This document shows positions 3,575 to 50,476 of a stretch of DNA of 64,000 nt, piece after piece (the stretch's first letter is position 1; each line of letters begins with the position of its first letter). The notes beneath the pieces are model-generated. The model was not told the DNA's origin. It saw only the letters and a program-made list of their open reading frames with translations, and made no database searches. The translations under genes and the position numbers were made by a program. This DNA is from Azoarcus sp. (lineage in GTDB: Bacteria > Pseudomonadota > Gammaproteobacteria > Burkholderiales > Rhodocyclaceae). Location: NCBI GenBank assembly GCA_030656215.1, contig JAUSOD010000091.1, positions 104,356-168,355 on the forward strand, read 5' to 3'.

Positions 3575-4606
3575 TCAGGGACTGAGCGGAACGATGTCGA
3601 TACCCAGCTGCTCATCCAGTCCGAACATGATGTTCATGTTCTGTACCGCTTGACCAGCGGCACCCTTGACCAGGTTATCAATCACCGACAGCACCACCAC
3701 CGTATCACCGCCCTGCGGCCGATGAACCGCAATCCGGCACAGATTTGACCCGCGCACGGAACGGGTTTCCGGATGGCTGCCCGCAGGCATCACGTCAACG
3801 AATGCCTCTCCGGCAAAGCGTTCCTCGTAAAGGGACTGCAGGTCGAGCTCACGCGTGAGACGTGCGTAGAGCGTGGCATGAATACCACGGATCATCGGCG
3901 TCAGGTGCGGCACGAAGGTCAGCCCCACGGTCTGCCCACTCGCCATCCCCGACAATCCCTGGCGAATCTCCGGCAAGTGACGATGCCCGCCCACACCGTA
4001 GGCTTTAAAGCTGTCGGCCGCCTCGGAGAACAGCGCCCCCACCTCGGCCTTGCGCCCCGCCCCGGACACACCCGATTTCGCATCGGCCACAAGGTGACCA
4101 AGCTCAACGGCCCCGGACTCGATCAGCGGCAGGAAGCCCAACTGTACCGCGGTCGGATAGCACCCTGGATTGGCAAGCACCCGCGCCGTGCGGATCTGCG
4201 CCCGATTCACCTCCGGAAGGCCATAGACAGCCTCGGCAACGAGCTCGGGAGCGGCATGGGTCATCCCGTACCACTTCTCCCACTCGGCGATGTCACGGAT
4301 CCGAAAATCCGCTGCAAGATCGATGACCCTGACACCAGCGGCAACCAGCTCGGCAGCCTGCTTCATCGCGATGCCATTGGGCGTCGCGAAAAACACCACA
4401 TCACACTGCTCGAGTCCTGCATCCTGAGGCGTCACGAACTTGAGCTCGACCCTGCGGCGCAGACTCGGAAACATGTCGGCAACCGGCATCCCAGCTTCAC
4501 CGCGCGACGTGATAGCCCGGAGCTGTACGCCCGGATGGCATGACAGCAGGCGCAACAACTCCACACCGGTATATCCGGTTCCGCCAACAACTCCAACCTT
4601 GATCAT
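3575..4606 (-). CDS. argC: N-acetyl-gamma-glutamyl-phosphate reductase
   Basis: [37 protein letters not shown]. Confidence 0.97.
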
Positions 4607-4691: not shown

Positions 4692-4721
4692 CAAAAAGCC
4701 GCCCTAAGGGACGGCTTTTTG
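4692..4721 (-). terminator. Intrinsic terminator of rplM-rpsI
   Basis: CAAAAAGCCG-CCCTAAGGG-A-CGGCTTTTTG hairpin with A and T tails, about 20 bp after the rpsI stop. Confidence 0.8.
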
Positions 4722-4739
4722 TACAGGCCACAAACGCGA

Positions 4740-5132
4740 TTAGCGCTTGGAGAACTGCTTTGCGCGACGCGCCTTGCGCAGACCAACCTTCTTCCGCTCG
4801 ACTTCGCGTGCATCGCGAGTGACGAAACCCGCCGTGCGCAGCTCAGGCTTCAGATCTTCGCTGTAGTCGATCAGGGCACGGGTGATGCCATGACGAACTG
4901 CACCGGCCTGACCGGATTCGCCACCACCGATCACGTTCACCATGATGTCGAAGCGAGCTTCGTTACCGGTGAGCACCAGCGGCTGACGAACGATCATGCG
5001 CCCGGTTTCACGAGAAAAGAACTCGTCGACCGGCTTGCCGTTAACGACGATGTTACCCGTGCCCGGCTTCATGAATACACGAGCCACCGCAGTCTTGCGG
5101 CGGCCAGTACCGTAGTTGTAAGTCACAGCCAT
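4740..5132 (-). CDS. rpsI: 30S ribosomal protein S9
   Basis: [19 protein letters not shown]...RRAKQFSKR; start moved to the ATG at 5132. Confidence 0.98.
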
Positions 5133-5143
5133 ATATGGCTCCT

Positions 5144-5572
5144 TCAGATCTCGAGAACTTTCGGCTGCTGGGCGGCATGCGGGTGCTCGGCACCGGCGTA
5201 GCACTTCAGCTTCTTAATCATGGCGTAGCCCAACGGACCCTTGGGCAGCATGCCCTTCACCGCTTTTTCCAGCACGCGTTCGGGGAAGCGTTGCTGAAGC
5301 TTGGTGAAATTGGTCTCGGAAATACCGCCAGGGTAACCGGAGTGGCTATAGTACTTCTTGTCCAGCGCCTTGTTGCCGGTTACGCGCAGCTTTTCGACGT
5401 TGACCACAACAATGTAGTCGCCGGTATCGACGTGCTGCGTGTAAATGGTCTTGTGCTTGCCACGCAGGCGGCGGGCCACTTCGGAGGCCAGACGGCCAAG
5501 CACCTTGTCCGTGCCGTCGACAACGAACCAGTCGCGCTGTACTTCGTGCGGCTTGGCAGAAAACGTTTTCAT
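5144..5572 (-). CDS. rplM: 50S ribosomal protein L13
   Basis: [19 protein letters not shown]...HVDTGDY...[12 protein letters not shown]; start moved to the ATG at 5572. Confidence 0.98.
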
Positions 5573-5630
5573 TTGAAACCTCGATCTTGTCGGGCCTGGC
5601 GTGCCGGCCACCAAACGGAAAGCTCGAAAT

Positions 5631-5658
5631 CTTATAGCCTTCCACACCCGTGTGTCAA
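5631..5658 (-). promoter_or_regulatory. Sigma70 promoter of rplM-rpsI
   Basis: Minus strand TTGACA-N16-TATAAG, about 60 bp upstream of rplM. Confidence 0.7.
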
Positions 5659-5721
5659 TGCGCACATGCGAAAGAATCTGAAGACCGCAAGCACGGCGAT
5701 GTGCCGGCAAGGAATTCAGGC

Positions 5722-5833
5722 AAAAAAAACGCAGTCCTTGTGGGACTGCGTTAAATCCACACCAAAGGAGGAGGGTGGAGGAGACACTGCTTGGATCACC
5801 GACTGCTTTCGCAGCACGTTTCTGATCCGACTG
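5722..5833 (-). ncRNA. Small RNA with anti-Shine-Dalgarno CUCCUCC tracts (resembles the betaproteobacterial 'toxic sRNA' family)
   Basis: Minus strand contains UGUCUCCUCCACCCUCCUCCUUUGGUGUGGAUUUAA, then the terminator AACGCAGUCC-CACAA-GGACUGCGUU and a U-run. The 5' part folds (GGAUCA/UGAUCC, CUGC-GAAA-GCAG). 5' end estimated from the promoter. Confidence 0.75.
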
Positions 5834-5839
5834 AGGCTG

Positions 5840-5868
5840 ATTATCCACAAAGCACCCAGACGGATCAA
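5840..5868 (-). promoter_or_regulatory. Predicted sigma70 promoter of the sRNA, overlapped by a consensus DnaA box (TTATCCACA, 5841-5849)
   Basis: Minus strand TTGATC-N17-GATAAT; an IHF-like AATCAGCAACTTG lies on the minus strand at 5932-5944 in an AT-rich tract. Confidence 0.55.
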
Positions 5869-6145
5869 GCATTATTTGTGCATCGCACTACAAATGTTCT
5901 GATTAGTCAATAAGTGTGCTTTATATTACTTCAAGTTGCTGATTAATAATAAGTTTTCTTGTAAATTTTACCATGGTTGCACCCGCATCCAAGAGCCGCA
6001 AACTCCACCTGCGAATTATTATGCTGCGCCGCAGCATTTCTTGGCACCCCCACCCCTCCGCACACTTGTCAGCTTGGGTAGAATCGCGCACTGAGAACGC
6101 ACACCGATACTGATGCGCCCGCTCTTGAACAGGAGAAGATCAAGC

Positions 6146-6565
6146 ATGGAATGCACCATCAAATGGGTCGACGGAATGACCTTCATGGCCGAGACCGGTA
6201 GCGGCCACCTGATCACCATGGATGGCGCACCGGAAGCCGGCGGCCGCAACCTTGCGCCGCGACCAATGGAGATGATGCTGGCAGGCGCAGGAGGATGCAC
6301 CGCCTTCGAGGTGGTGCTGATACTCAAGCGCAGACGCCAGGACGTACGCGACTGCTCGGTAAGACTTGAGGCCGATCGCGCCGACACGGACCCCAAAGTG
6401 TTCACCCGCATCCGGTTTCACTACACCATCACCGGCAAGAACCTCAAGCCGGAATCGGTCGAACGGGCCATACACCTATCAGCGGAAAAGTACTGCTCGG
6501 CCTCGATCATGCTCGCCAAGACCGCCGAAATCATCCACGAATGGAGCATCGTCGAGCTTGAGTAG
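6146..6565 (+). CDS. OsmC family protein (YhfA-like)
   Basis: MDGAPEAGGRNLAPRPMEMMLAGAGGC and SAEKYCSAS; start moved to the ATG at 6146 (AGGAGA upstream). Confidence 0.9.
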   Translation: MECTIKWVDGMTFMAETGSGHLITMDGAPEAGGRNLAPRPMEMMLAGAGGCTAFEVVLILKRRRQDVRDCSVRLEADRADTDPKVFTRIRFHYTITGKNLKPESVERAIHLSAEKYCSASIMLAKTAEIIHEWSIVELE

Positions 6566-6612
6566 CGCTCGATGGTCCCCGCCCTGCAGACCCGTCAGCA
6601 GGGACTAGGAAT

Positions 6613-7236
6613 TCAGATGCGATAGACCGTCTTCGTCATGACGCTCGAGAACAGTTTCATCACCGCCTTGACCGGGGCCGGAAGCTCATCCGCCCCCAGT
6701 CGTACGGCCGTTTCGGCGTGACTGATCTCGTCGGCTTTCATCTGCTCGACGATCGCACGCGACTTTCGATCCTCGGGCGGCAAGCTTTCAAGGTGACCGT
6801 GGAGGTGTGCTTCGACCTGACGCTCGGTTTCAGCAAGAAATCCGAGATTTACGCGGTCGCCGAACTTTCCGGCCACCATGCCAACAATCAGGGAACTCCC
6901 ATACCACAGCGGGTTCAGCAGACTCTTGCGCCCGCCGAGTTCGGCAATGCGCTGCTCGGTCCACGCCAGATGCTCGGTCTCCTCCTGCGAAGCACGCTCG
7001 AGCGCCTTGCGGATCGAGTCGTCTTTCGACATCAGCGCCTGGCCCTGATAAAGCGCCTGGGCACAAATTTCCCCGCAATGATTGACTCGCATCAGCGCGG
7101 ATGCATGCCTTTTTTGCGCATCATCGAGCGGAGCATCGGGCAAATCATCGCCCGGCACCGGACGTACCGAGCGCGCCGGCGCAAACACCGTGCGTAGCGC
7201 CCTGTCGAACTGCATGATGGCCTGATCTAGCATCAT
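6613..7236 (-). CDS. coq7: Demethoxyubiquinone hydroxylase Coq7 (di-iron)
   Basis: [41 protein letters not shown]. Confidence 0.93.
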
Positions 7237-7751
7237 CTCCCTCCCCGCGCTGGATCCAAAAAATCACTGACGCCGTCAAGACGGCGAAGCACTTCGTCCC
7301 GATCGCGCGGCGGCGCCGGACCGTCACAGAAAAGATCCTTTGCCAGGGCCGCGCGCGGCCGGTTGTAGGAATTATCCACGATCGGGCTCCAGGCGCTGTT
7401 CTTCATCGCCACCCAGGATCCATCCTTGCGACCACCGGCATAGATCCGCCTCTCGCCAGTCCCGCACCGGATGCCCTCGAAGGTCACGTTCTCCGCACCA
7501 CCCCTGGTACGAATCACGAGCACGTAGCGCACCACGCCATCGCCGCCGATCGTGAACGATGCAGCATCAATCAGGAAGGTGTTGGGCGACGCTGCGCTGA
7601 CAAAGAACGGCCTCAAGGTCTTGTCGCTGGGCGCTGCGGGCAACACGTACTCGCCCTCGCTCCAGTCAGGATCAGCGTCGACCAGCAAGCCGGCAGACGC
7701 CGAGGCACACATGAGGATCGGCAAGGCCAGCACGACCCCGCAACGTCGCAC
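7233..7751 (-). CDS. CNP1-like family exported protein
   Basis: Signal peptide; [10 protein letters not shown]...[10 protein letters not shown]...FC; GTG start at 7751 chosen. Confidence 0.75.
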
Positions 7752-7838
7752 AAACGGCGCAATCAAGAAATTCTCTCCACGCGGGATGCATTCAACCCGC
7801 AACTGATAAAGGTTTCGGACACAAACACACCCGATACA

Positions 7839-8366
7839 TCACACGGGAGGTGGTGTCTCGGGACGATAGGCGTCCGGCAGCTCAAATGGCCGGGCACGGA
7901 ACAACACTCTGGACAACTCTGCAAGCGCCAGTTGATAGACCTGACGCTTGAACTCGATGACAGCATCGAGCGGAACCCAGTAATCGCTCCAACGCCAGGC
8001 GTCGAACTCCGGGTGGTTACTGGCGCGCAGACATACATCCGAGTCGCGCCCGACCAATCGCAGCAGAAACCAGATCTGTTTCTGCCCACGATAGGTGTTG
8101 CGCCATTCCCGCTTTATCCAGTGCTTGGGAACGTCATAGCGCAACCAGCCGCGTGTGCGGCCGAGGATCTTGACGTGTTCGGGACGCAAACCGACTTCCT
8201 CGAACAGTTCCCGGTACATGGCCTGCTCCGGCGTTTCGCCGTGCTTGATGCCACCTTGAGGGAACTGCCAGGAATGCTCACGGATCCGCTTGCCCCAGAA
8301 CACTTCATTTCGCGGGTTAACAAGGATGATGCCGACGTTCGGGCGGTAGCCTTCACGATCGAGCAT
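7839..8366 (-). CDS. rppH: RNA pyrophosphohydrolase RppH
   Basis: [20 protein letters not shown], Nudix box [17 protein letters not shown]. Confidence 0.96.
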
Positions 8367-8536
8367 GATCAAACCTTAATATTCGCTTGGTTGTGACAGA
8401 TTTTTTCACACTTGAGACCACTTTGAAAGCTCGCTTCGCAAGCGGTTCCCATGCAGCGGCAAATGGGTGCTCATCACCGCGGTGACCGCATACGCTAGAA
8501 TCGCACGATTCGACAAACCAATCCGACCACATCTCC

Positions 8537-10282
8537 ATGCGCGCCAGCCAGTTTCACCTGTTTACCCTCAAGGAAGCTCCCTCCGACGCCGAAGTCGTCA
8601 GCCAGCAGTTGATGCTGCGTGCCGGCATGATCCGCAAGGTTGCCGCAGGCATCTACAACTACATGCCGATGGGCCTGCGCTCGATCCGCAAGGTCGAGGC
8701 CATCATCCGTGACGAACTCGATCGCGCCGGCGCCATGGAGCTGGTGATGCCGTTGGTACAGCCGGCCGAGCTGTGGCAGGAGACCGGGCGCTGGGACAAG
8801 ATGGGGCCGGAGATGCTGCGACTCAAGGATCGTCACGATCGCGACTTCGCACTGCAACCGACCTCCGAGGAGGTGGTGACCGATATCGCCCGCCAGGAGC
8901 TCAAGAGCTATCGCCAGTTGCCAAAGAACTTCTACCAGATCCAGACCAAGTTCCGCGACGAGCGCCGGCCGCGCTTCGGTGTGATGCGCGGGCGCGAGTT
9001 CCTGATGAAGGACGGCTACTCCTTCGACCGTGACGTCGAGGCGGCAGGCCGCAGCTACGAGAAAATGTACGCTGCCTATGGCCGCATTTTCGATCGTATC
9101 GGCCTGGAGTATCGCGCGGTGGCAGCAGACACCGGTGCAATCGGTGGCGATCGCTCGCACGAGTTCCAGGTTATCGCCGATACCGGCGAGGACGCGATCG
9201 TCTACTGCCCGGACTCCGACTACGCTGCCAACATCGAGCTGGCCGAGGCAGTTGCACTACTGACCGGGCGTGCCACTGCCGGACGCGCACTCGAAAAGAC
9301 CCCGACCCCGGGTAAGTCCACCTGCGGTGATGTTGCCGAACTCCTCGGGGTGGCGCTGCAGACCACAGTGAAGTCGCTCGTACTGGCCAGCGAAGAGGTC
9401 GATGAGACCGGCAAGGTGCTCAAGACTACGATCTGCTTGCTGCTGGTGCGCGGCGACCACGACCTCAACGAGGTCAAGGCGGGCAAGATCGAGGGCCTCA
9501 AGGCCGGATTCCGCTTCGCGACCGAAACCGAAATCATCGAGCACTTCGGCTGCAAGCCTGGCTACCTGGGCCCGATCGGACTCAAGAAGCCGGTTCGGAT
9601 CATCGCCGACCGTACCGTCGCCAACATGGCCGACTTCATCTGCGGCGCCAACGACGAGGGTTTCCATTACACCGGCGCAAATTGGGGCCGCGACCTGCCC
9701 GAGCCCGAGCTCGTCGCCGACATCCGCAACGTGGTCGAGGGCGACCCTTCGCCCGATGGCAAGGGTGTGCTCGCGATCCAGCGCGGCATCGAGGTGGGCC
9801 ATGTGTTCTACCTCGGCAACAAGTATTCGAAGGCGATGAACGCCACCTTCCTCGATATCGATGGCAAGCCCAAGCACTTCGAGATGGGCTGCTACGGTAT
9901 CGGTGTGACCCGCATTCTGGGTGCGGCAATCGAGCAGAACCACGATGCACGCGGGATCATCTGGCCAGCGGCCATCGCGCCCTTCGAGGTCGTGATCTGC
10001 GGGGTGGGCTGGGGCAAGTCGGAAGCGGTGCGCGACGAGGCTGTCCGGCTCTACGACACGCTCAAGGCCGCTGGCGTGGATGTGATACTGGACGACCGCG
10101 ACGAGCGTCCGGGGGTGATGTTTGCCGACTGGGAATTGATCGGCGTTCCGCATCGGGTCACGATCGGCGATCGCGGCCTGAAGGAAGGCGTGGTCGAATA
10201 TCAGGCACGCCGTGAGGGCGAACAGCTCAAGTTTGCACCCGACGCCATCGCGGCTCACATCATTGCCAGCATCCGGGCCTGA
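8537..10282 (+). CDS. proS: Prolyl-tRNA synthetase with editing insertion
   Basis: [40 protein letters not shown]. Confidence 0.98.
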
Positions 10283-42761: not shown

Positions 42762-43109
42762 CTAGATTGCGTCCTTGATCCGTTGTTCGAACAGGTGGAT
42801 CTGGCCAACGTCGATTCCGGCGATATGCTCCAGCGGGATGGTGAATAACACCCCCCTGGAATCATTTTTCAGATCCAGCGCGGCATTGAGCCGCTTCAGT
42901 ACGGTGAGCGACAACTTCCTTTCGAGCACGAAGATCAGCACCGACTGACTACCCTCGTAGGTCAGCCCGAAAAAAGTCTTCTTCTGCTCGGCCCCAATTC
43001 CGCGGGCATCGAGTATGGTCACCCCGCCGGCACCGGCCTGGCGGGCGACATCCAGTGCCTTCTCCTCCAGATCCTCGGCCAGGATGGCCACAAGCACTGA
43101 AAATTTCAT
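42762..43109 (-). CDS. PII-like protein
   Basis: AGAGGVTILDARGIG, FFGLTYE, GVLFTIPLEHIAGI; 115 aa, no GlnB uridylylation loop signature. Confidence 0.85.
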   Translation of the reverse strand: MKFSVLVAILAEDLEEKALDVARQAGAGGVTILDARGIGAEQKKTFFGLTYEGSQSVLIFVLERKLSLTVLKRLNAALDLKNDSRGVLFTIPLEHIAGIDVGQIHLFEQRIKDAI

Positions 43110-44665
43110 GATATTTCTCCTTTAAGCCGGCCGCTCCGCTCCATGGCAATGGCGTAGAGCATCACGGTGACGATGGGAAAGATGGAAGCGAATGCAATCA
43201 GGCCGAAGCCGTCGATCAGCACATTACGCCCCTCGATCTGGGTGGCCAGCCCGATGCCGAGCGCGGTGACCAGCGGTACGGTCACTTCCGAGGTGGTCAC
43301 GCCGCCCAGATCGAAGGCGAGTGGCACGATGTATTTCGGTGCAAACCAGGTCAGCAGGATCACCAGCGTGTAGCCACCCATGATGTAGTAGTGGATGGAA
43401 TCGCCAGTGATGATGCGATGTACGCCGACGGTGATACCCACCGCCACCCCGAGCGCCACCAGCAGACGGATGCGGTTGCCATCGAGTCGCCCCTTGCCGG
43501 CCTCCTCTGCCTTCTGGCCTATCGCAATCAGCGCCGGCTCGGCCATGGTGGTGGCGAAACCGATCGAGAATGCAAACAAGTAGACGTAGAGTAGCGTATC
43601 GAGGCCGATGAGTTGTTCGGCCATGCTGCGCCCGATCGGGAACAGGCCGAGCTTGAGCCCGACCACAAAGGCATACAAACCCACGATCACCAGCACAAAG
43701 CCGCCCATCACTTTATGAACGTGAGCAATGTGCTTGCGGATCACCAGGTACTGAAAGATCAGGATCACCGCAATGATGGGCAGGACGTCGCGGAACATCG
43801 TGAGCAGATCGATGAACATGCCGAGCAGTGCCGCACCGAACCCGGATTCGACCACAGCGGACGCAGCCAGCGCGGGCTCGACCTGTACGCCAGACTCGGT
43901 CACGGCCGCCATCCCCGAGGCCAGCTCCGCACCCATCACCACGGCATCGGCCGTTTCGCCAAAGCTGTACACCACGATGCCGTAGAGTTGCACCGAGATC
44001 ATCGGCACCATGACCGCCAGCGCCACCAGCCCGAAGCCATGCGCAAGCGCATTGCGCCCGCGGATCGAGCTTGCCAGGCCGATACCCAACGAAGCAATCA
44101 AGGGCACGGTGACGATATTGGTGGTCACTCCGCCCGAGTCGTAGGCGAGGCCGACGATCTCTTCCGGCGCAAAAAAAGTCACCCCGACCACCAGCAGATA
44201 GCCAATGATCATGTACCAGTGCAGCGCATGGCCAAGAATGGTGCGCACAACGCCCAGCGCCACCACCATCCCGACCGAGAGTGCCACCAGCATGCGCAAG
44301 GTGAAGCCGTCGATACGCCCGAGGCTGATCATCTCGGCCTGATTTGCCACCGCAATCAAGGCGGGCTCGGCAATCACGGCGGAAAAGCCAAGGCAGAAAC
44401 CAAACAACATCAGCAAGGGTAGCGAGCCCTTCCTGGCAAATTCATTGGACAGGTTCTTGCCGATCGGAAAGATACCCAACTCCAGCCCTTGCAGGAACAG
44501 GGCCACACCAAACACCACCACGAGCAGTCCGAACGTCATCGACATCAGATCGTCCGGCATCTGGCGCACGATCACCAGCTGAAAAAAGCTGACGACGAGG
44601 ATGATCGGCAACAGGTTGCGAAAGGAGTGCTGCAGGATACGGAGAAATTCGCTGAGCTGGCTCAA
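43106..44665 (-). CDS. Tandem DUF1538 multi-pass membrane protein
   Basis: Two homologous halves: (IAEPAL, YDSGGVTT, FGLVALA) and (MAEPAL, FDLGGVTT, FGLIAFA); TTG start. Confidence 0.85.
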   Translation of the reverse strand: MSQLSEFLRILQHSFRNLLPIILVVSFFQLVIVRQMPDDLMSMTFGLLVVVFGVALFLQGLELGIFPIGKNLSNEFARKGSLPLLMLFGFCLGFSAVIAEPALIAVANQAEMISLGRIDGFTLRMLVALSVGMVVALGVVRTILGHALHWYMIIGYLLVVGVTFFAPEEIVGLAYDSGGVTTNIVTVPLIASLGIGLASSIRGRNALAHGFGLVALAVMVPMISVQLYGIVVYSFGETADAVVMGAELASGMAAVTESGVQVEPALAASAVVESGFGAALLGMFIDLLTMFRDVLPIIAVILIFQYLVIRKHIAHVHKVMGGFVLVIVGLYAFVVGLKLGLFPIGRSMAEQLIGLDTLLYVYLFAFSIGFATTMAEPALIAIGQKAEEAGKGRLDGNRIRLLVALGVAVGITVGVHRIITGDSIHYYIMGGYTLVILLTWFAPKYIVPLAFDLGGVTTSEVTVPLVTALGIGLATQIEGRNVLIDGFGLIAFASIFPIVTVMLYAIAMERSGRLKGEIS

Positions 44666-44792
44666 ATCACGCTTTCCTTAGAACAAGACAAGGCCAGCGT
44701 TGCAGCCGACTGCGTAGCTGAAGTATCCAGTCTCACGCTGATTTGGTCAAACCGCCCGCATATCGAGGGACTCCGACTCGCCAAGTCCTCAG

Positions 44793-45947
44793 TCAGTCCT
44801 CAGGCAGATCATCCTGCCCGAACAGCACCAGTTGCCCATTGTCGGCCCCCTCCCCGACCTCGGCAAAACGGACACCGACCCCGAGCAGGCGCACCGGACG
44901 AGCACCGCGCGCGAACCCTTCTTCCAGCAACGACATCCACGCCGCGACAGACGGACGGTCGGCACCGCGTTCGACGGTGGTCTGGGTGAAATCGGCGAAC
45001 TTCACTTTCACGAAAACCGTACTCACGCGCCCGGCATCACGTGCGCGACCGAAGCGCCGGCCAAACTCCTCTGCCAGCGCCGGCAATGCCTCGAGGCAGG
45101 CGGCCAGATCAGGCAGGTCACGGGTGTAGGTGGTTTCCACCGACAGCGACTTGCGTACCCGGTCGGGGCGTACCGGACGCTCATCCACCCCTCGGCACAG
45201 GCGGTACAGGCTGGCGCCAAAACTGCCGAACTCAGCCACCAGTTCGGACTGGCTCCAGACGCGCAGATCACCGCAGGTCTGTACGCCAAGACGATGCATC
45301 TTTTCGGCGGTGACTTTGCCGACACCGAAGATCTTCTTCACCGGCAGTGCAGCAACGAAGGCATCCACCTGCCGCGGGCGCACCACGAACTGCCCGTCGG
45401 GCTTGTTCCAGTCGCTCGCGACCTTGGCGATGAACTTGTTCGGCGCGATCCCGGCGGACGCGGTGATGCCGACCTCGGCGCGGATGCGTGCGCGGATCTC
45501 CTGCGCCATCAGCGTGGCCGAACCCTCGCAACGGTCGACGCCGGTGACGTCAAGATAAGCCTCGTCGAGCGACAGCGGCTCGACCAGTGGCGTGTAGTCG
45601 CGGTAAATATCGAGGATCTGCCTGGATGCGGCGCGGTAGCGTTCGAAATCCGGCGGCAGCAGCACCAGTTGCGGGCACAGCTTGAGCGCCCTCATGGTCG
45701 ACATCGCCGAATGCACGCCGACCGCCCGTGCCTCGTAGTTGCAGGTCGCGATCACCCCGCGCGTCTCGGCCCTGCCGCCGACCGCCAGCGGCCGGCCGGC
45801 GAGCGACGGGTCGTCCCGCGTCTCGACCGCCGCATAAAAGCAATCGCAGTCGCAATGGATGATCTTGCGCTGCACCGCGGCCCCGCTCGCCTCGCACGAA
45901 CTCTCCTCCACCACCGTCAGCACTTGTATGTTCCCACCGCTATCCAT
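44793..45947 (-). CDS. dinB: DNA polymerase IV
   Basis: IIHCDCDCFYAAVE, CNYEAR, SLDEAYLD, KVASDWNKPDG; start 45947 (ATG) or 45875 (GTG). Confidence 0.95.
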   Translation of the reverse strand: MDSGGNIQVLTVVEESSCEASGAAVQRKIIHCDCDCFYAAVETRDDPSLAGRPLAVGGRAETRGVIATCNYEARAVGVHSAMSTMRALKLCPQLVLLPPDFERYRAASRQILDIYRDYTPLVEPLSLDEAYLDVTGVDRCEGSATLMAQEIRARIRAEVGITASAGIAPNKFIAKVASDWNKPDGQFVVRPRQVDAFVAALPVKKIFGVGKVTAEKMHRLGVQTCGDLRVWSQSELVAEFGSFGASLYRLCRGVDERPVRPDRVRKSLSVETTYTRDLPDLAACLEALPALAEEFGRRFGRARDAGRVSTVFVKVKFADFTQTTVERGADRPSVAAWMSLLEEGFARGARPVRLLGVGVRFAEVGEGADNGQLVLFGQDDLPED

Positions 45948-46056
45948 TGTCACCCTCACCTTCGCGCCACGATCATCGGGCACCCCGGCGCAAAGCGCAA
46001 CGAAGCGGTCGCGAACACGCTCGCCAACAGGGGCTGGCGTTTCCGCCGGGAGAGGC

Positions 46057-46072
46057 GGGCTCAAATCTTGCT
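46057..46072 (+). promoter_or_regulatory. Sigma54 (-24/-12) promoter candidate upstream of the CCA-like gene
   Basis: GGGCTCAAATCTTGCT = GG-N10-GC with TTGCT; ATG about 45 bp downstream. Confidence 0.5.
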
Positions 46073-46115
46073 GACATCAGGCATACCTTCGCCCCTCCCC
46101 TTGCCAACCAAACCC

Positions 46116-47018
46116 ATGGCATCCGACTTTTTCCGCGGACTCCCGGACCCACCATCGACCGATCCCGCGTTGAATCTGCTCCGCCTCGCCGCACTGGCAG
46201 CTGGCGACGACGACGGGCTGGACGACGAAACCCTCGGGCTGATGCACCAAGCGGTCGCCGCCGGCGCGCTTGCCAGCCTGGCGCCGGCCGCCGCGTGGGT
46301 CGAACTCGAACGCGGGCTGATGTCTAAAGCGCCGTCGCGCATGTTCCGCGCCTTGCAGGCATGCGGCGCCCTGTCGTTACTGCTGCCCGAACTGGAGGCC
46401 CTGTTCGGTGTACCACAAAGCGCCGACGAACCGGCCGAGGTCGACATCGGCGAACACCAACTGCGCGTGGTCGACGAGACTGCCCGCGCCTGTGCCCCGC
46501 CGGCGGTACGGTTTGCCGCGCTGGTGTTCAACCTTGGCAAGTTCGACTCGCCGCGCGAGCACCTGCCGTCGCACTACCGCCATCTCGAACGCGGACGGCC
46601 GCGCGTAGAAGCGGTGTGCGAGCGCTTCGGACTGCCGCTGGCATACCGCGACCTGGCGCTGCTCGTGCTAGCCGAATGCGAACGCGTCCATCGCGCGGCA
46701 GAAATGCGGGCCGGCTCGATCGCAGCACTGCTGGAACGGGTCGATGCGTTCGAGCGGGGCGAACGCTTCGAACAATTGCTGACGGTCTGCCTGTGCGACT
46801 TCCGCGCCTACCCCGGGCGCGCGACCCGACACTACCCCAAGGCGGCAATGCTGCGCGTGGCGCGGCAAGCCTGCCTGAGCCTCGACCCCACGGGCATGAC
46901 CGACGACGAGCAGCCCGAGGACGCGGCGGAAGCGCTGCAGCTCGCCCGCGCAGCCGCCGTCGCGAGCGCATTGCGCTCCGAGCGTTGGGCCAGCGCATCC
47001 GACCCGACCAAGGGTTGA
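46116..47018 (+). CDS. Truncated paralogue of tRNA nucleotidyltransferase (neck/body/HD region only, catalytic motifs lost)
   Basis: Aligns by eye with the C-terminal two-thirds of proteobacterial CCA (DETLGLM, AWVELERGL, LPELEALFGVPQ, VDIGEH, VRFAALVFNLGK, CDFRAYPG). No N-terminal DxD head. Confidence 0.8.
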   Translation: MASDFFRGLPDPPSTDPALNLLRLAALAAGDDDGLDDETLGLMHQAVAAGALASLAPAAAWVELERGLMSKAPSRMFRALQACGALSLLLPELEALFGVPQSADEPAEVDIGEHQLRVVDETARACAPPAVRFAALVFNLGKFDSPREHLPSHYRHLERGRPRVEAVCERFGLPLAYRDLALLVLAECERVHRAAEMRAGSIAALLERVDAFERGERFEQLLTVCLCDFRAYPGRATRHYPKAAMLRVARQACLSLDPTGMTDDEQPEDAAEALQLARAAAVASALRSERWASASDPTKG

Positions 47019-47139: not shown

Positions 47140-48165
47140 ATGCTGTTTCGCCGCGACACTTCGCACACGATCAACCTCGCCCTGCAGGGCGGCGGCGCAC
47201 ATGGCGCCTTCACCTGGGGCGTACTCGACGCCTTGCTGGAGGATGGCCGCCTATCCTTCGACGGCATCAGCGGCACCAGCGCCGGAGCGATGAACGCGGT
47301 AGTGCTCGCCCATGGGCTGCTGCAGGATGGCCACGACGGTGCGCGCGCAGCGCTCGAACGATTCTGGAACGCGGTGGCCGCCCTCGGGCCGGCCGAGCTG
47401 CCCTTCCCTGCCGGCGACGGCGGCGGCATCGGTCTGTCCTCCGGTATCCGGGTGATGGCGCAGTGGATGCAGCATTTCTCGCCCGAACAACTGAACCCCT
47501 TCGATGTCGATCCGCTGCGCGATCTCCTCGCCGCCCATATCGACTTCGAGCGCCTGCGCGCGGATAGTCCGGTGAAGCTCTTCGTCGCCGCCACCCACGC
47601 CAACACCGGCAGGCTGCGCTTGTTCCAGGCCCACGAAATGAGCGTATCGACGGTCCTCGCCTCGGCCTGCCTGCCGACCGTGCAACGCGCGATCGAGATC
47701 GACGGCGAGCCCTACTGGGACGGCGCCTATTCGGCCAACCCGGCTGTGTTCCCGCTGTTCTACGAATGCACCGCGAACGACATCCTGCTGGTGTTGCTCA
47801 GTCCCCTGCTGCACGGTGACACGCCGCGTAGCGCCGAGGAGATCCGCGCCCGTTCGCTGGATCTCGCCTTCAACGCGACCTTTCTGCGCGAGATGCGCAT
47901 GTTCGCGCACGCCCGCGAATACGCCGAACACTCGCTGCCGCCGCGCGGCCGCCTCGAGCGTCACCTGCAGCGGACCCACTTCCACCTGATCGAGGCCGAG
48001 GAACTGCTGAGCCAGCTGGCCGCAGAAACCCGGATGACACCCGGACCGGCGTTCATCCACATGCTGTACGAGCAGGGCCGCAGCCGCGCCCAGAACTGGC
48101 TGACGGTGCATTTTCCGGCGCTCGGGCGACGCTCGTCGGTAGACCTGGGACAAATGTTCTACTGA
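47140..48165 (+). CDS. Patatin-like phospholipase/esterase
   Basis: QGGGAHGAF, SGTSAGA, YWDGAY, ANPA. Confidence 0.92.
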   Translation: MLFRRDTSHTINLALQGGGAHGAFTWGVLDALLEDGRLSFDGISGTSAGAMNAVVLAHGLLQDGHDGARAALERFWNAVAALGPAELPFPAGDGGGIGLSSGIRVMAQWMQHFSPEQLNPFDVDPLRDLLAAHIDFERLRADSPVKLFVAATHANTGRLRLFQAHEMSVSTVLASACLPTVQRAIEIDGEPYWDGAYSANPAVFPLFYECTANDILLVLLSPLLHGDTPRSAEEIRARSLDLAFNATFLREMRMFAHAREYAEHSLPPRGRLERHLQRTHFHLIEAEELLSQLAAETRMTPGPAFIHMLYEQGRSRAQNWLTVHFPALGRRSSVDLGQMFY

Positions 48166-48338: not shown

Positions 48339-48394
48339 AGACATCTGCGACGGCCTGTCGGACCGGACGCCCAGCTCACGGACCGGAGGTGTCG

Positions 48395-48946
48395 ATGATG
48401 GCAAGGGGAATGGGATTGCGCAGTGTCTGTGGGTGCATCGTGGGATTGCTGATCACCTGCGCCTCGATCCTGCCGGCGTGGGCCGAACCGCCCACCCTGG
48501 TCGTGCTCGACTTCGACCTCCTCGAAGACCATCCGGACCCGGCGCAGGCGGCCGACCTGCAACGCCGGCTTGCGCGGGTCCGCGACATGTTCGCCGACGG
48601 CGTCGCCGCGGCGGGCGTATACCGGGTGATCGGCCTCGGCGCCGCGCAACCGGTGCACGACGGCTATCGCCGCCAGATCCAGAACGTCCACCGCTGCGGC
48701 TACTGCCAGGTCGAGATCGGCAAGGCCGCCGGGGCGCGTCTGACTGCCGCGGGCTGGGTGCAGAAGGTGAGCAACCTGATCCTGAACATCAACGTCGAGA
48801 TCCGCGACGTCGAGGCCGACCGGGTCGTGCTTACCAAGTCGGTCGATATCCGCTCGAACACCGACCAGTCATGGGAGCGCGGCATGCGCTTCCTGGTACG
48901 CGATATCGTCGAGCGGAGGGCTGCGAACCCGGACTACGGGCAGTGA
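48395..48946 (+). CDS. DUF3280/DUF2380-like exported protein
   Basis: Signal peptide, LVVLDFDL, CGYC, GWVQKVSNLILNINV, SVDIRSNTDQSW; GGAGG SD. Confidence 0.8.
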   Translation: MMARGMGLRSVCGCIVGLLITCASILPAWAEPPTLVVLDFDLLEDHPDPAQAADLQRRLARVRDMFADGVAAAGVYRVIGLGAAQPVHDGYRRQIQNVHRCGYCQVEIGKAAGARLTAAGWVQKVSNLILNINVEIRDVEADRVVLTKSVDIRSNTDQSWERGMRFLVRDIVERRAANPDYGQ

Positions 48947-49030: not shown

Positions 49031-50116
49031 TCAGTCCAGTTCGGCAGCCCGTTTCACCCGCCGCTGGCGCACGCCTTCGGCCAGCACATCGAGCACCTCG
49101 ATGCTGTCTTCCCAGCCGATGCAGGCATCGGTGACGCTCTTGCCGTATTCGAGCTCGACCCCCGGCTTGAGGTCCTGGCGTCCTTCCTTGAGGTGGGACT
49201 CCACCATCACCCCGATGATGCGCTCCTCGCCGTTGGCGAGCTGACCAGCCACATCGCGCCCGACGGCGATCTGCAGCCGGTGCTGCTTGCTGCTGTTGGC
49301 GTGGGAGAAATCCACCATCACCTTGCCTTGCACACCGCCCACTGCCAGATCCTTGCACGCGGCATCAACGCTTTCGGCATCATAATTGGGCGCCTTGCCG
49401 CCACGCAGGATGGCGTGGCAATCCTCGTTGCCGCGCGTGGTCACAATGGCCGAGTGGCCGGCCTTGGTCACGCTGAGGAAATGGTGCGGCGCCTGCGCAG
49501 CCTTGATCGCATCCACCGCAATCCGTACATTGCCATCGGTGCCGTTCTTGAACCCGACCGGACACGACAGGCCGGAGGCCAGCTCACGGTGCACCTGACT
49601 CTCGGTGGTGCGTGCGCCAATGGCCCCCCAACTGATGAGATCGGCGATGTACTGCGGCGTGATCATGTCGAGGAACTCGGTGCCAGCCGGCAACCCCAGC
49701 TCGTTGATTTCCCACAGCAGCTTGCGCGCCAGGCGCACGCCTTCATTGATCGCGTAGCTGCCATCGAGATGGGGATCGTTGATCAGCCCCTTCCAGCCCA
49801 CAGTGGTGCGGGGCTTCTCGAAGTAGACCCGCATCACGATCAGCAGGTCATTCTTGAGCCGGTCGGCCTCGGCCTTGAGCTTGTGCGCATACTCGAGCGC
49901 GGCCGCGGGGTCGTGGATCGAACATGGCCCGATCACGACCAGCAGGCGATCGTCCGCACCATAGAGAATGCGATGAATGTCCTGACGCGCCTCATACGCC
50001 ACCTCGGCCGCCTTCGGTGTGGCCGGAAACTCGCGCAGCACGTGGGCCGGCGGCACCAGTTCCTTGATTTCCGAGATACGGACGTCGTCGATATGAAGCT
50101 TCATTGAGGCGGGCAT
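49031..50116 (-). CDS. 3-deoxy-7-phosphoheptulonate (DAHP) synthase, class I alpha (AroF/AroG type)
   Basis: GPCSIHD, FEKPRTTVGWKG, IGARTTESQVHRE, DFSHANS, SVTDACIGW. Confidence 0.96.
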   Translation of the reverse strand: MPASMKLHIDDVRISEIKELVPPAHVLREFPATPKAAEVAYEARQDIHRILYGADDRLLVVIGPCSIHDPAAALEYAHKLKAEADRLKNDLLIVMRVYFEKPRTTVGWKGLINDPHLDGSYAINEGVRLARKLLWEINELGLPAGTEFLDMITPQYIADLISWGAIGARTTESQVHRELASGLSCPVGFKNGTDGNVRIAVDAIKAAQAPHHFLSVTKAGHSAIVTTRGNEDCHAILRGGKAPNYDAESVDAACKDLAVGGVQGKVMVDFSHANSSKQHRLQIAVGRDVAGQLANGEERIIGVMVESHLKEGRQDLKPGVELEYGKSVTDACIGWEDSIEVLDVLAEGVRQRRVKRAAELD

Positions 50117-50476
50117 GGCAATACTCTGCATTCAGACTTGGGTAAGCGATCGATTTTAGCCCAAGTCCCCGCCTCGCTGCGGGATCACGGCAAAGAAGGA
50201 AAAAAGTGTCCCGAGGTGAAATGAAGCCGGTCGAGAACCGTTTGCAGTCGGGCGCGTCTCACCCACCAACGCCCTTCCACACTCCTCATGCCCCGTCACT
50301 GACGCTTCATTGTGACGTCGCACGTCGGCCTTGAGCGCCTGTGCTACGAGCCTGGTAAGCGCAGAAGGCGCAGGAAATTCATGCAAACATCCCGAACGCG
50401 CTGTAAGAACCGGCGCCAGCTCAACGACCAAGCCTCATTCCCACCAAACTTCATTTCCCGACCACGGACCTCCACC

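Follow-up and report, generated by a model that had tools for sequence, protein, structure and literature searches.

A head-less paralogue of the CCA-adding enzyme found so far only in nitrogenase-carrying Proteobacteria

Within a 64,000-nucleotide stretch of DNA from Azoarcus sp. (assembly GCA_030656215.1, contig JAUSOD010000091.1, positions 104,356 to 168,355 of the forward strand; hereafter the window), an open reading frame (ORF) at 46116..47018 on the plus strand encodes a protein of 300 residues that consists of the neck, RNA-binding region, HD-like domain and tail of the E. coli-type CCA-adding enzyme (Cca), and that has neither the polymerase head nor the catalytic His-Asp dyad of that enzyme. 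The family to which it belongs arose once from E. coli-type Cca, then spread horizontally, and has been found so far only in Proteobacteria that carry nitrogenase. The reading that best accommodates these observations, at a probability of roughly 0.45, is that of a neo-functionalized accessory protein of the diazotrophic lifestyle that would work through a rebuilt HD pocket.

The relationship to Cca is evident in both profile and pairwise comparisons. Residues 15-287 match positions 130-405 of the 409-position NCBIfam model NF008137 (multifunctional CCA addition/repair protein) with an E-value of 1.6e-64 and 218 bits, well under the equivalog cut-off of 451 bits, whereas the true cca of the same genome, on contig C33, reaches 618 bits. 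The match opens at model position 130, so that the ORF begins at the CCA neck, as had been proposed in a first-pass annotation made from the sequence alone. In a Pfam scan of the 300-residue protein, the sole match is PolyA_pol_RNAbd (PF12627) at residues 38-95 (46227..46400, plus strand; 24 bits against a cut-off of 22), with neither the head (PF01743) nor the HD domain (PF01966) detected at an E-value of 1 or below. Alignment with the genome's own Cca, to which the protein is 35% identical, places TDPALNLLR (residues 15-23; 46158..46184, plus strand) opposite EDPVRILR, a degenerate remnant of neck motif D (EDxxR), and LVFNLGK opposite LLHDLGK, such that F138 and N139 (codons TTC and AAC, 46527..46532, plus strand) stand in place of the catalytic dyad. 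The description of the ORF as a head-less, HD-dyad-less Cca paralogue in which HDLGK has become FNLGK is therefore borne out by NF008137, Pfam and the own-Cca alignment alike. The change in the neck is general: full-length Cca carries (E/Q)DPxRxLR at this position, whereas the family carries x-x-P-x-L-x-x-L-R, in which the E, the D and the first R are not conserved. In CCA enzymes, motif D selects the nucleotide, templating CTP and ATP. Lacking both a Pol-beta head and an EDxxR template, the head-less protein, as judged from its sequence, cannot polymerize or add CCA. Nor is the canonical HD metal site available to it.

No head was found to complement the truncated protein. A frameshifted or otherwise hidden head, which the first-pass annotation had raised as an alternative, was rejected: a tblastn search with the head of the genome's own Cca (residues 1-135) returned only noise, with a best E-value of 1.2 over 11 residues in the interval 44500-46300 and nothing elsewhere in the window. 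The stretch in which an upstream head would have to sit is occupied by the divergent gene dinB (DNA polymerase IV; 44796..45947, minus strand; Pfam IMS, IMS_HHH and IMS_C), and no head-like frame is present there. A split enzyme with a separate head encoded elsewhere was likewise rejected, as the only two PF01743 heads in the genome belong to the full-length cca, whose presence elsewhere had been proposed as a check, and to pcnB. The reading frame itself is intact from ATG to TGA and has host-like codon usage, as claimed initially, its GC content at third codon positions being 0.79 as compared with 0.79-0.84 in neighbouring genes. The locus had originally been placed at 46057-47018, of which the end stands; position 46057 is the first base of a candidate promoter element, and the ORF starts at 46116.

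The best-conserved part of the head-less protein is its HD-like domain (residues ~106-235; 46431..46820, plus strand), which displays a remodelled pocket when residues are counted by alignment column in 57 family members and 46 full-length Cca. Within this domain, D110, H114, K142, D144, S145, H149, H153, Y154, R159, R163, E187, E189, H192, R198, R208, C225 and D228 are invariant in the family, and E148, H156, R190, R193 and C227 are nearly so; the polar positions of the domain that do not vary number ~30. Shared with Cca are D110, H114, G141-K142, H153, H156, H192 and D228, which include the first His (H114) and the last Asp (D228) of the H...HD...D motif. Positions that are invariant or nearly so in the family alone are D144, E148, H149, Y154, R163, E187, E189, R190, R193, R198, R208, K242, C225 and C227. 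At the dyad itself, the family exhibits MN, FN, YN, IN, AN, MH, CQ, KD, VP or HK and never HD, which is present in 44 of the 46 full-length Cca. The retention of five further His/Asp positions from the HD domain of Cca, together with a new invariant set of Asp, Glu, His, Cys and Arg, suggests that the HD-like pocket has been rebuilt, for binding or catalysis, and is not dead. Thus, the dyad loss inherent in the original label "HD-dead" is correct, but "dead" appears too simple. The HD site of E. coli Cca is reportedly required for its phosphatase and 2′,3′-cyclic phosphodiesterase activities.

Structural prediction agrees with this assignment of the fold. The AlphaFold2 model of the 300-residue protein is all-helical, with a mean confidence (predicted local distance difference test) of 89.7, and the structures that match it best in Foldseek are those of class II tRNA nucleotidyltransferases, including tRNA complexes of class II CCA enzymes, with template modelling (TM) scores of 0.50-0.57 when normalized to the query. 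A sequence search of the PDB yielded no match with the single sequence and only a marginal one with a profile (3h37, E-value 0.31). At the level of the domain, the fold is also matched by the HD di-iron oxygenases PhnZ and TmpB and by HD phosphohydrolases, with probabilities of 0.87-0.98 and query-normalized TM-scores of ~0.3. The H...HD...H...H...D ligand pattern of HD-domain enzymes is partly kept in the head-less protein (H114, H153/H156, H192 and D228), although, unlike those enzymes, it has no dyad and no PF01966 sequence match. Redox chemistry would be pure speculation for the head-less protein, prompted only by a Rieske protein encoded beside some of its orthologues.

The protein is a member of a sizeable family. 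A homologue search across 5.8 billion proteins gave upwards of 2000 matches, and the best 120 of these are 53-71% identical to the query and nearly all 276-323 residues long (two are ~255 residues). They derive from Azoarcus, Zoogloea, Methyloversatilis, Nitrogeniibacter, Methylococcus and others, those that bear a name being called "tRNA nucleotidyltransferase", and a scan of one genome per species adds Methylocystis, Methylocella, Xanthobacter, Hyphomicrobium, Rhodoblastus, Sideroxydans, Thiobacillus and Parazoarcus. Across the Alpha-, Beta- and Gammaproteobacteria, members are 52-71% identical and share one common architecture. At 49 loci from named genomes, the protein is 281-304 residues long, save for one of 275 residues with a TTG start; it begins 12-16 residues ahead of the conserved P-x-L-x-x-L-R neck motif, and in-frame stop codons often lie 20-100 nucleotides upstream of the start. 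A shorter relative of ~250 residues (locus L014, G071:C3:842521-846261) begins past the neck and has H-K at the dyad, in a nifD-positive genome with a normal cca; together with the representatives P0125 and P0129 it may constitute a second subfamily.

Purifying selection and a single origin are both apparent in these sequences. The ratio of nonsynonymous to synonymous substitution rates (dN/dS) is 0.11-0.38 in 16 pairs with 64-96% amino acid identity, and 45 columns are invariant among the 57 members; conservation of the truncation and of the His/Asp loss under a dN/dS below 1, which had been suggested as a check, is thus a family-wide property. Maximum-likelihood analysis groups 27 head-less proteins in a single clade (Shimodaira-Hasegawa-like approximate likelihood ratio support of 100, stem length 0.56) apart from 46 full-length Cca, with terminal branches that are for the most part shorter than the Cca ones. 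The gamma and alpha members are nested among the beta members, which indicates horizontal spread following a single origin. A decaying, functionless remnant of a duplicated cca would account for the joint loss of the head, motif D and the HD dyad. However, it is refuted by the dN/dS values, the invariant columns, 52-71% identity over three classes and a conserved promoter (below), and deserves essentially no credence; the related concern that homologues might exist only in this strain and be in neutral decay is answered by the same distribution and the same dN/dS range.

Carriers are rare and patchily distributed, comprising 9 of 201 genomes (6 of 89 genera) in a sample of the window's family, the Rhodocyclaceae, 4 of 201 in a sample of its order and 3 of 400 in a sample of its class. 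Within the window's own genus, 2 of 3 genomes carry the gene. Every carrier checked also holds a full-length cca. What unites these genomes is nitrogenase: nifD, called with TIGR01282 above its cut-off or as a match interrupted by a contig end, is present in all 24 distinct carrier genomes tested, which span at least 10 genera and three classes. In the family sample, nifD occurs in 9/9 carriers as compared with 84/201 genomes overall (42%; hypergeometric P 3e-4), and in the order sample in 4/4 as compared with 23/201 (11%), or in 3/3 when the window's own genome is set aside (P 1e-3); these counts come from samples rather than a census, and related genomes are not independent. It is likewise found in 2/2 carriers of the class sample and in 10/10 named alpha, beta or unclassified carriers. 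Independent cases come from three other families of the order, a gamma lineage and alpha lineages. In the Rhodocyclaceae, the head-less gene lies megabases from nifD, and it is unlinked in this genome too; physical hitch-hiking therefore fails to explain the pattern. The link of the family to nifD genomes, and to a nif island as set out below, is new in this analysis and had been missed in the first-pass annotation.

Upstream of the gene is a candidate sigma-54 (-24/-12) promoter element, GGGCTCAAATCTTGCT (46057..46072, plus strand), with its GG at 46058-59 and its GC at 46070-71, 44 nucleotides before the ATG. It displays the expected GG-N10-GC spacing and agrees with 9 of the 11 specified positions of TGGCAC-N5-TTGCW. 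By itself, this element offers modest backing for the sigma-54 promoter that had been proposed initially, but the same element recurs at a similar distance among orthologues of several lineages. Of the 48 orthologue loci, 21 have a site scoring at least 9/11 at -27 to -71 from the ATG, usually at -47 to -54, whereas ~0.6 would be expected from the mere 3 such sites in the remaining ~250 nucleotides of each of the 48 upstream regions. The closest orthologue, in Azoarcus indigens, has TGGCGCGCATCTTGCT (10/11) at -49, and further elements precede the orthologues of Nitrogeniibacter (CGGCACACAAGTTGCA), Sideroxydans (TGGCATTCAATTTGCA), Parazoarcus (TGGCATGCTTCCTGCT) and Rhodoblastus (TGGCAAGGCGCTTGCA). 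In Methylocystis, the element CGGCAAGxxCTTTGCA occurs within three different flanking contexts, and therefore travels with the gene. No sigma-54-type element precedes the Xanthobacter orthologues or the operonic copies. The genome encodes rpoN (PF04552, 228 bits, contig C33), and it seems probable that the head-less gene in this genome depends on sigma-54.

Whatever activator would serve such a promoter, it does not appear to be NifA at its canonical site. No NifA upstream activator sequence (UAS; TGT-N10-ACA) is present within 700 nucleotides upstream of the head-less gene, and none occurs in 14.7 kb of upstream sequence from the 21 loci of sigma-54 type, for which chance alone would give 3.6. 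As a positive control, an 11/11 sigma-54 site, TGGCACGCTCATTGCA (26054), and a NifA UAS, TGTTGTCGGCCCTACA (25940), were located in this way before the nifH gene of this genome (contig C99:25940-27043). A NifA-dependent promoter was accordingly rejected. A 10/12 NtrC-like site in Parazoarcus is the single one of its kind and probably reflects chance. Other promoter-like features exist in the region: a sigma-70-like match, TTGTCA-18-GATCAT (9/12), lies at 45947-45976 on the plus strand, ~140 nucleotides before the ORF and at the 5′ end of dinB, which is encoded on the opposite strand, and is a possible alternative or additional promoter. Orthologues of the A. olearius type have a different sigma-70-like arrangement, TTGCTG-N17-TACCAT. 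There is no recognizable Shine-Dalgarno sequence before the head-less gene (46085-46115) or before most orthologues, the 15-20 nucleotides that precede the ATG being C-rich, as in CCAACCAAACCCATG.

The surroundings of the gene differ from lineage to lineage. In most genomes, it is solitary and in unrelated company, here lying between dinB and a gene for a patatin-like phospholipase (47140..48165, plus strand; Pfam Patatin) that is not conserved beside orthologues. All-against-all clustering of neighbours at ~50 loci disclosed no conserved operon partner beyond synteny within genera, with the exception of a small Rieske protein that is adjacent to or near the head-less gene in 9 loci. In two genomes (G757 and G803), however, the gene resides ~20 kb from nifD, inside the nif island, within a tight same-strand run. 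The order there is nifE, nifN, nifX with a gene for a NifX-associated protein, followed by genes for ferredoxin, NifQ, a globin, a SagB-like nitroreductase, a rhodanese-ankyrin protein, BolA, a monothiol (CGFS-type) glutaredoxin and Rieske, then the head-less gene, GST and an ABM monooxygenase, past which fixXCBA follows in G757. The part of this run from the SagB-like gene to the ABM monooxygenase gene extends over 4714-10016 of locus L038 (G757:C1:54000-71000) and is seen again at loci L081 and L125 (G803:C11), and the head-less gene starts 7-20 nucleotides after the Rieske stop codon. A 9/11 sigma-54-like site, CGGCACCGATTTTGCG, lies 27 nucleotides before the SagB-like ORF of this run. Among the other loci, a pseudouridine synthase gene adjoins the head-less gene in Nitrogeniibacter, and in an uncultured alphaproteobacterium (L082) a PII-family protein (MKKIVAIIKPFKFEEV...) is encoded directly downstream at ~3964-4302, with Rieske divergently upstream.

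Several known proteins offer points of comparison. E. coli-type Cca (class II, with a C-terminal HD domain) is homologous from the neck through the RNA-binding region and HD domain to the tail, but the head-less protein is without the Pol-beta head (~130 residues), EDxxR and the dyad, is acidic where Cca is neutral to basic, and falls in a clade of its own. True orthologues, 52-71% identical and of the same length and architecture, are already present in databases as azo2549 ("cca2") of A. olearius BH72 and as "tRNA nucleotidyltransferase" entries from Azoarcus, Zoogloea, Methylococcus, Methylocystis, Xanthobacter and others; these names are automatic and imply an activity that the protein cannot have. 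The beta subunit of the bacterial heterotetrameric GlyRS (PDB 7EIV) has an HD fold with Ser-Lys in place of the dyad and a highly conserved cavity, and resembles the head-less family in combining a CCA-enzyme-like body and tail with the absence of a nucleotidyltransferase head (PMC8464048). Unlike the head-less family, it belongs to an aminoacyl-tRNA synthetase and occurs universally in many bacteria; it is distant in sequence, and its tRNA handling has been demonstrated. A further precedent is a CCA-enzyme fold kept as a non-polymerizing RNA-associated protein (PMC3794860), which differs in being eukaryotic, of class I (archaeal-type) origin and in retaining a dead head domain. No description or functional study of the head-less family was found in the literature, and it is probably undescribed.

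How such a protein might have arisen and been put to use can be outlined as follows. A single ancestral event would have removed the polymerase head from a copy of E. coli-type Cca, and the head-less copy would then have spread horizontally among nitrogen-fixing Alpha-, Beta- and Gammaproteobacteria, with selection preserving its helical body and, above all, the rebuilt HD-like pocket. That pocket may bind a metal, a phosphate-bearing ligand (for instance a nucleotide or the 3′ end of an RNA), or both, and the protein would then be no passive sponge for tRNA but a hydrolase of altered activity, a sensor or an adaptor. The gene would be transcribed by itself from its own sigma-54 promoter in many lineages, this genome probably among them, and respond to an activator other than NifA at the canonical site. 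In a methanotroph-type lineage, by contrast, it belongs to an operon of the nif island together with genes for rhodanese, BolA, monothiol glutaredoxin, Rieske and GST. The restriction to nifD genomes, the promoter and the nif-island operon together suggest that the role most likely relates to the physiology of nitrogen fixation under aerobic or microaerobic conditions. A fuller version of this proposal, in which the protein is a sigma-54-controlled, diazotroph-specific component whose rebuilt pocket has acquired a reaction or a sensing function that is new and that aerobic nitrogen fixers need, is put forward tentatively, as possible rather than probable. Purely as examples, such a role could be linked to redox or metals, beside Rieske, glutaredoxin and BolA, or could consist in control of RNA or nucleotide pools while nitrogenase is being made.

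Several observations weigh against an accessory role in nitrogen fixation. The association with nifD runs in one direction, since only 9 of the 84 nifD-positive Rhodocyclaceae (~11%) carry the gene, and when counted by genus the signal in this family is weak, with 6 carrier genera against a background in which 55 of 89 genera (62%) are nifD-positive. In a microarray study of A. olearius BH72, azo2549 was 2.0-fold higher in the wild type than in a nifLA mutant (P 0.011) and unchanged between N2 and ammonium (PMC3916325, Table S1); the former signal is small, and as about a quarter of the BH72 genome changed in the same comparison, it amounts to weak support for the nif link. Sites as good as GGGCTCAAATCTTGCT number 1494 in the genome, or ~0.037 per 250 nucleotides per strand, and the element is absent before the orthologues of A. 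olearius and of another genome of the same genus (G350). Across the orthologue upstream regions, no NtrC-like site, shared 8-mer, enhancer site or activator recurs. There is no close orthologue of the Rieske neighbour in this genome, and a Rieske partnership is therefore not general. Lastly, the case for a rebuilt metal or ligand site is drawn from conservation in the alignment.

The nif link could instead be incidental and reflect a shared gene pool or habitat, the protein being, for instance, a variant nucleotide or second-messenger phosphohydrolase in a general sigma-54 stress regulon. The horizontal transfer visible in the tree, the small share of nifD-positive Rhodocyclaceae that carry the gene, the complete lack of NifA sites where several would be expected by chance, and the indifference of the BH72 gene to the nitrogen source would all fit such an arrangement. 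It is nevertheless unlikely, as it has to contend with the presence of nifD in every carrier tested against a background of 11-42%, with the placement of the gene inside a nif-island operon in two genomes, and with its absence from nif-less relatives in the Rhodocyclaceae, where it is nonetheless unlinked to nif.

Two other alternatives stay closer to the ancestral enzyme. The first-pass annotation favoured a pseudo-enzyme that keeps the tRNA-binding surface. On this view, worked out further, the acceptor arm and elbow of tRNA would still be docked by the body, HD-like domain and tail, and the protein would sequester, chaperone or present tRNA under sigma-54 conditions. Homology to the neck, body and tail of Cca, the PF12627 match above the Pfam threshold, the structural matches to tRNA complexes, the precedent of the GlyRS beta subunit, which with its dyad-less HD fold and CCA-like body and tail is the best available (PMC8464048), and the pseudouridine synthase gene in Nitrogeniibacter all lend themselves to this idea. 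The surface of the protein does not: the family is acidic, with a median isoelectric point of 5.27 and a net charge of -10, whereas the same region of 46 Cca has values of 7.7 and +1, and its neck has 2 basic residues where that of Cca has 7, its tail 6 where that of Cca has 9. Because this acidic shift affects the very parts that contact tRNA in CCA enzymes, it counts against a retained general tRNA-binding surface, and that element of the original proposal is not supported. Nor does any tRNA or translation gene recur as a neighbour across ~50 loci, Nitrogeniibacter apart, and the restriction to nifD genomes would be left unexplained. Such a role is unlikely. Truncated paralogues often behave as dominant partners, and conceivably the head-less copy could attach to full-length Cca by way of the body and tail that they share, altering its activity, as a full-length cca accompanies it in every carrier checked. 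However, the two genes are not co-located, the two proteins are only 35% identical in this genome, and their surface charge has strongly diverged, such that regulation of Cca must be considered very improbable. The accessory function in diazotrophy, working through the remodelled pocket, thus continues to be the preferred explanation.

Other genes lie in the vicinity. Just past dinB is a gene for a DUF1538 membrane protein with two repeats by Pfam (43109-44665, minus strand), and beyond the patatin-like gene are those for a DUF3280 (PF11684) protein (48389-48946, plus strand) and a DAHP synthase (49034-50131, minus strand), both of them ordinary and without relation to the present finding.

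The database name "tRNA nucleotidyltransferase" is misleading for these proteins, as the activity it denotes is impossible for them. The family is instead a clean natural case in which an essential RNA enzyme has shed its catalytic domain and been kept for another use, and its occurrence solely in nitrogenase carriers, together with a portable sigma-54 promoter, provides footholds for experiment. In tRNA research, it would illustrate what the HD and body module of the E. coli-type enzyme is capable of by itself. Aerobic nitrogen fixation still has accessory needs that are unexplained, and a new gene that co-occurs with nitrogenase is thus a testable candidate for meeting them; if the proposed diazotroph-specific role of the pocket is correct, it would represent an unrecognized nif-accessory function.

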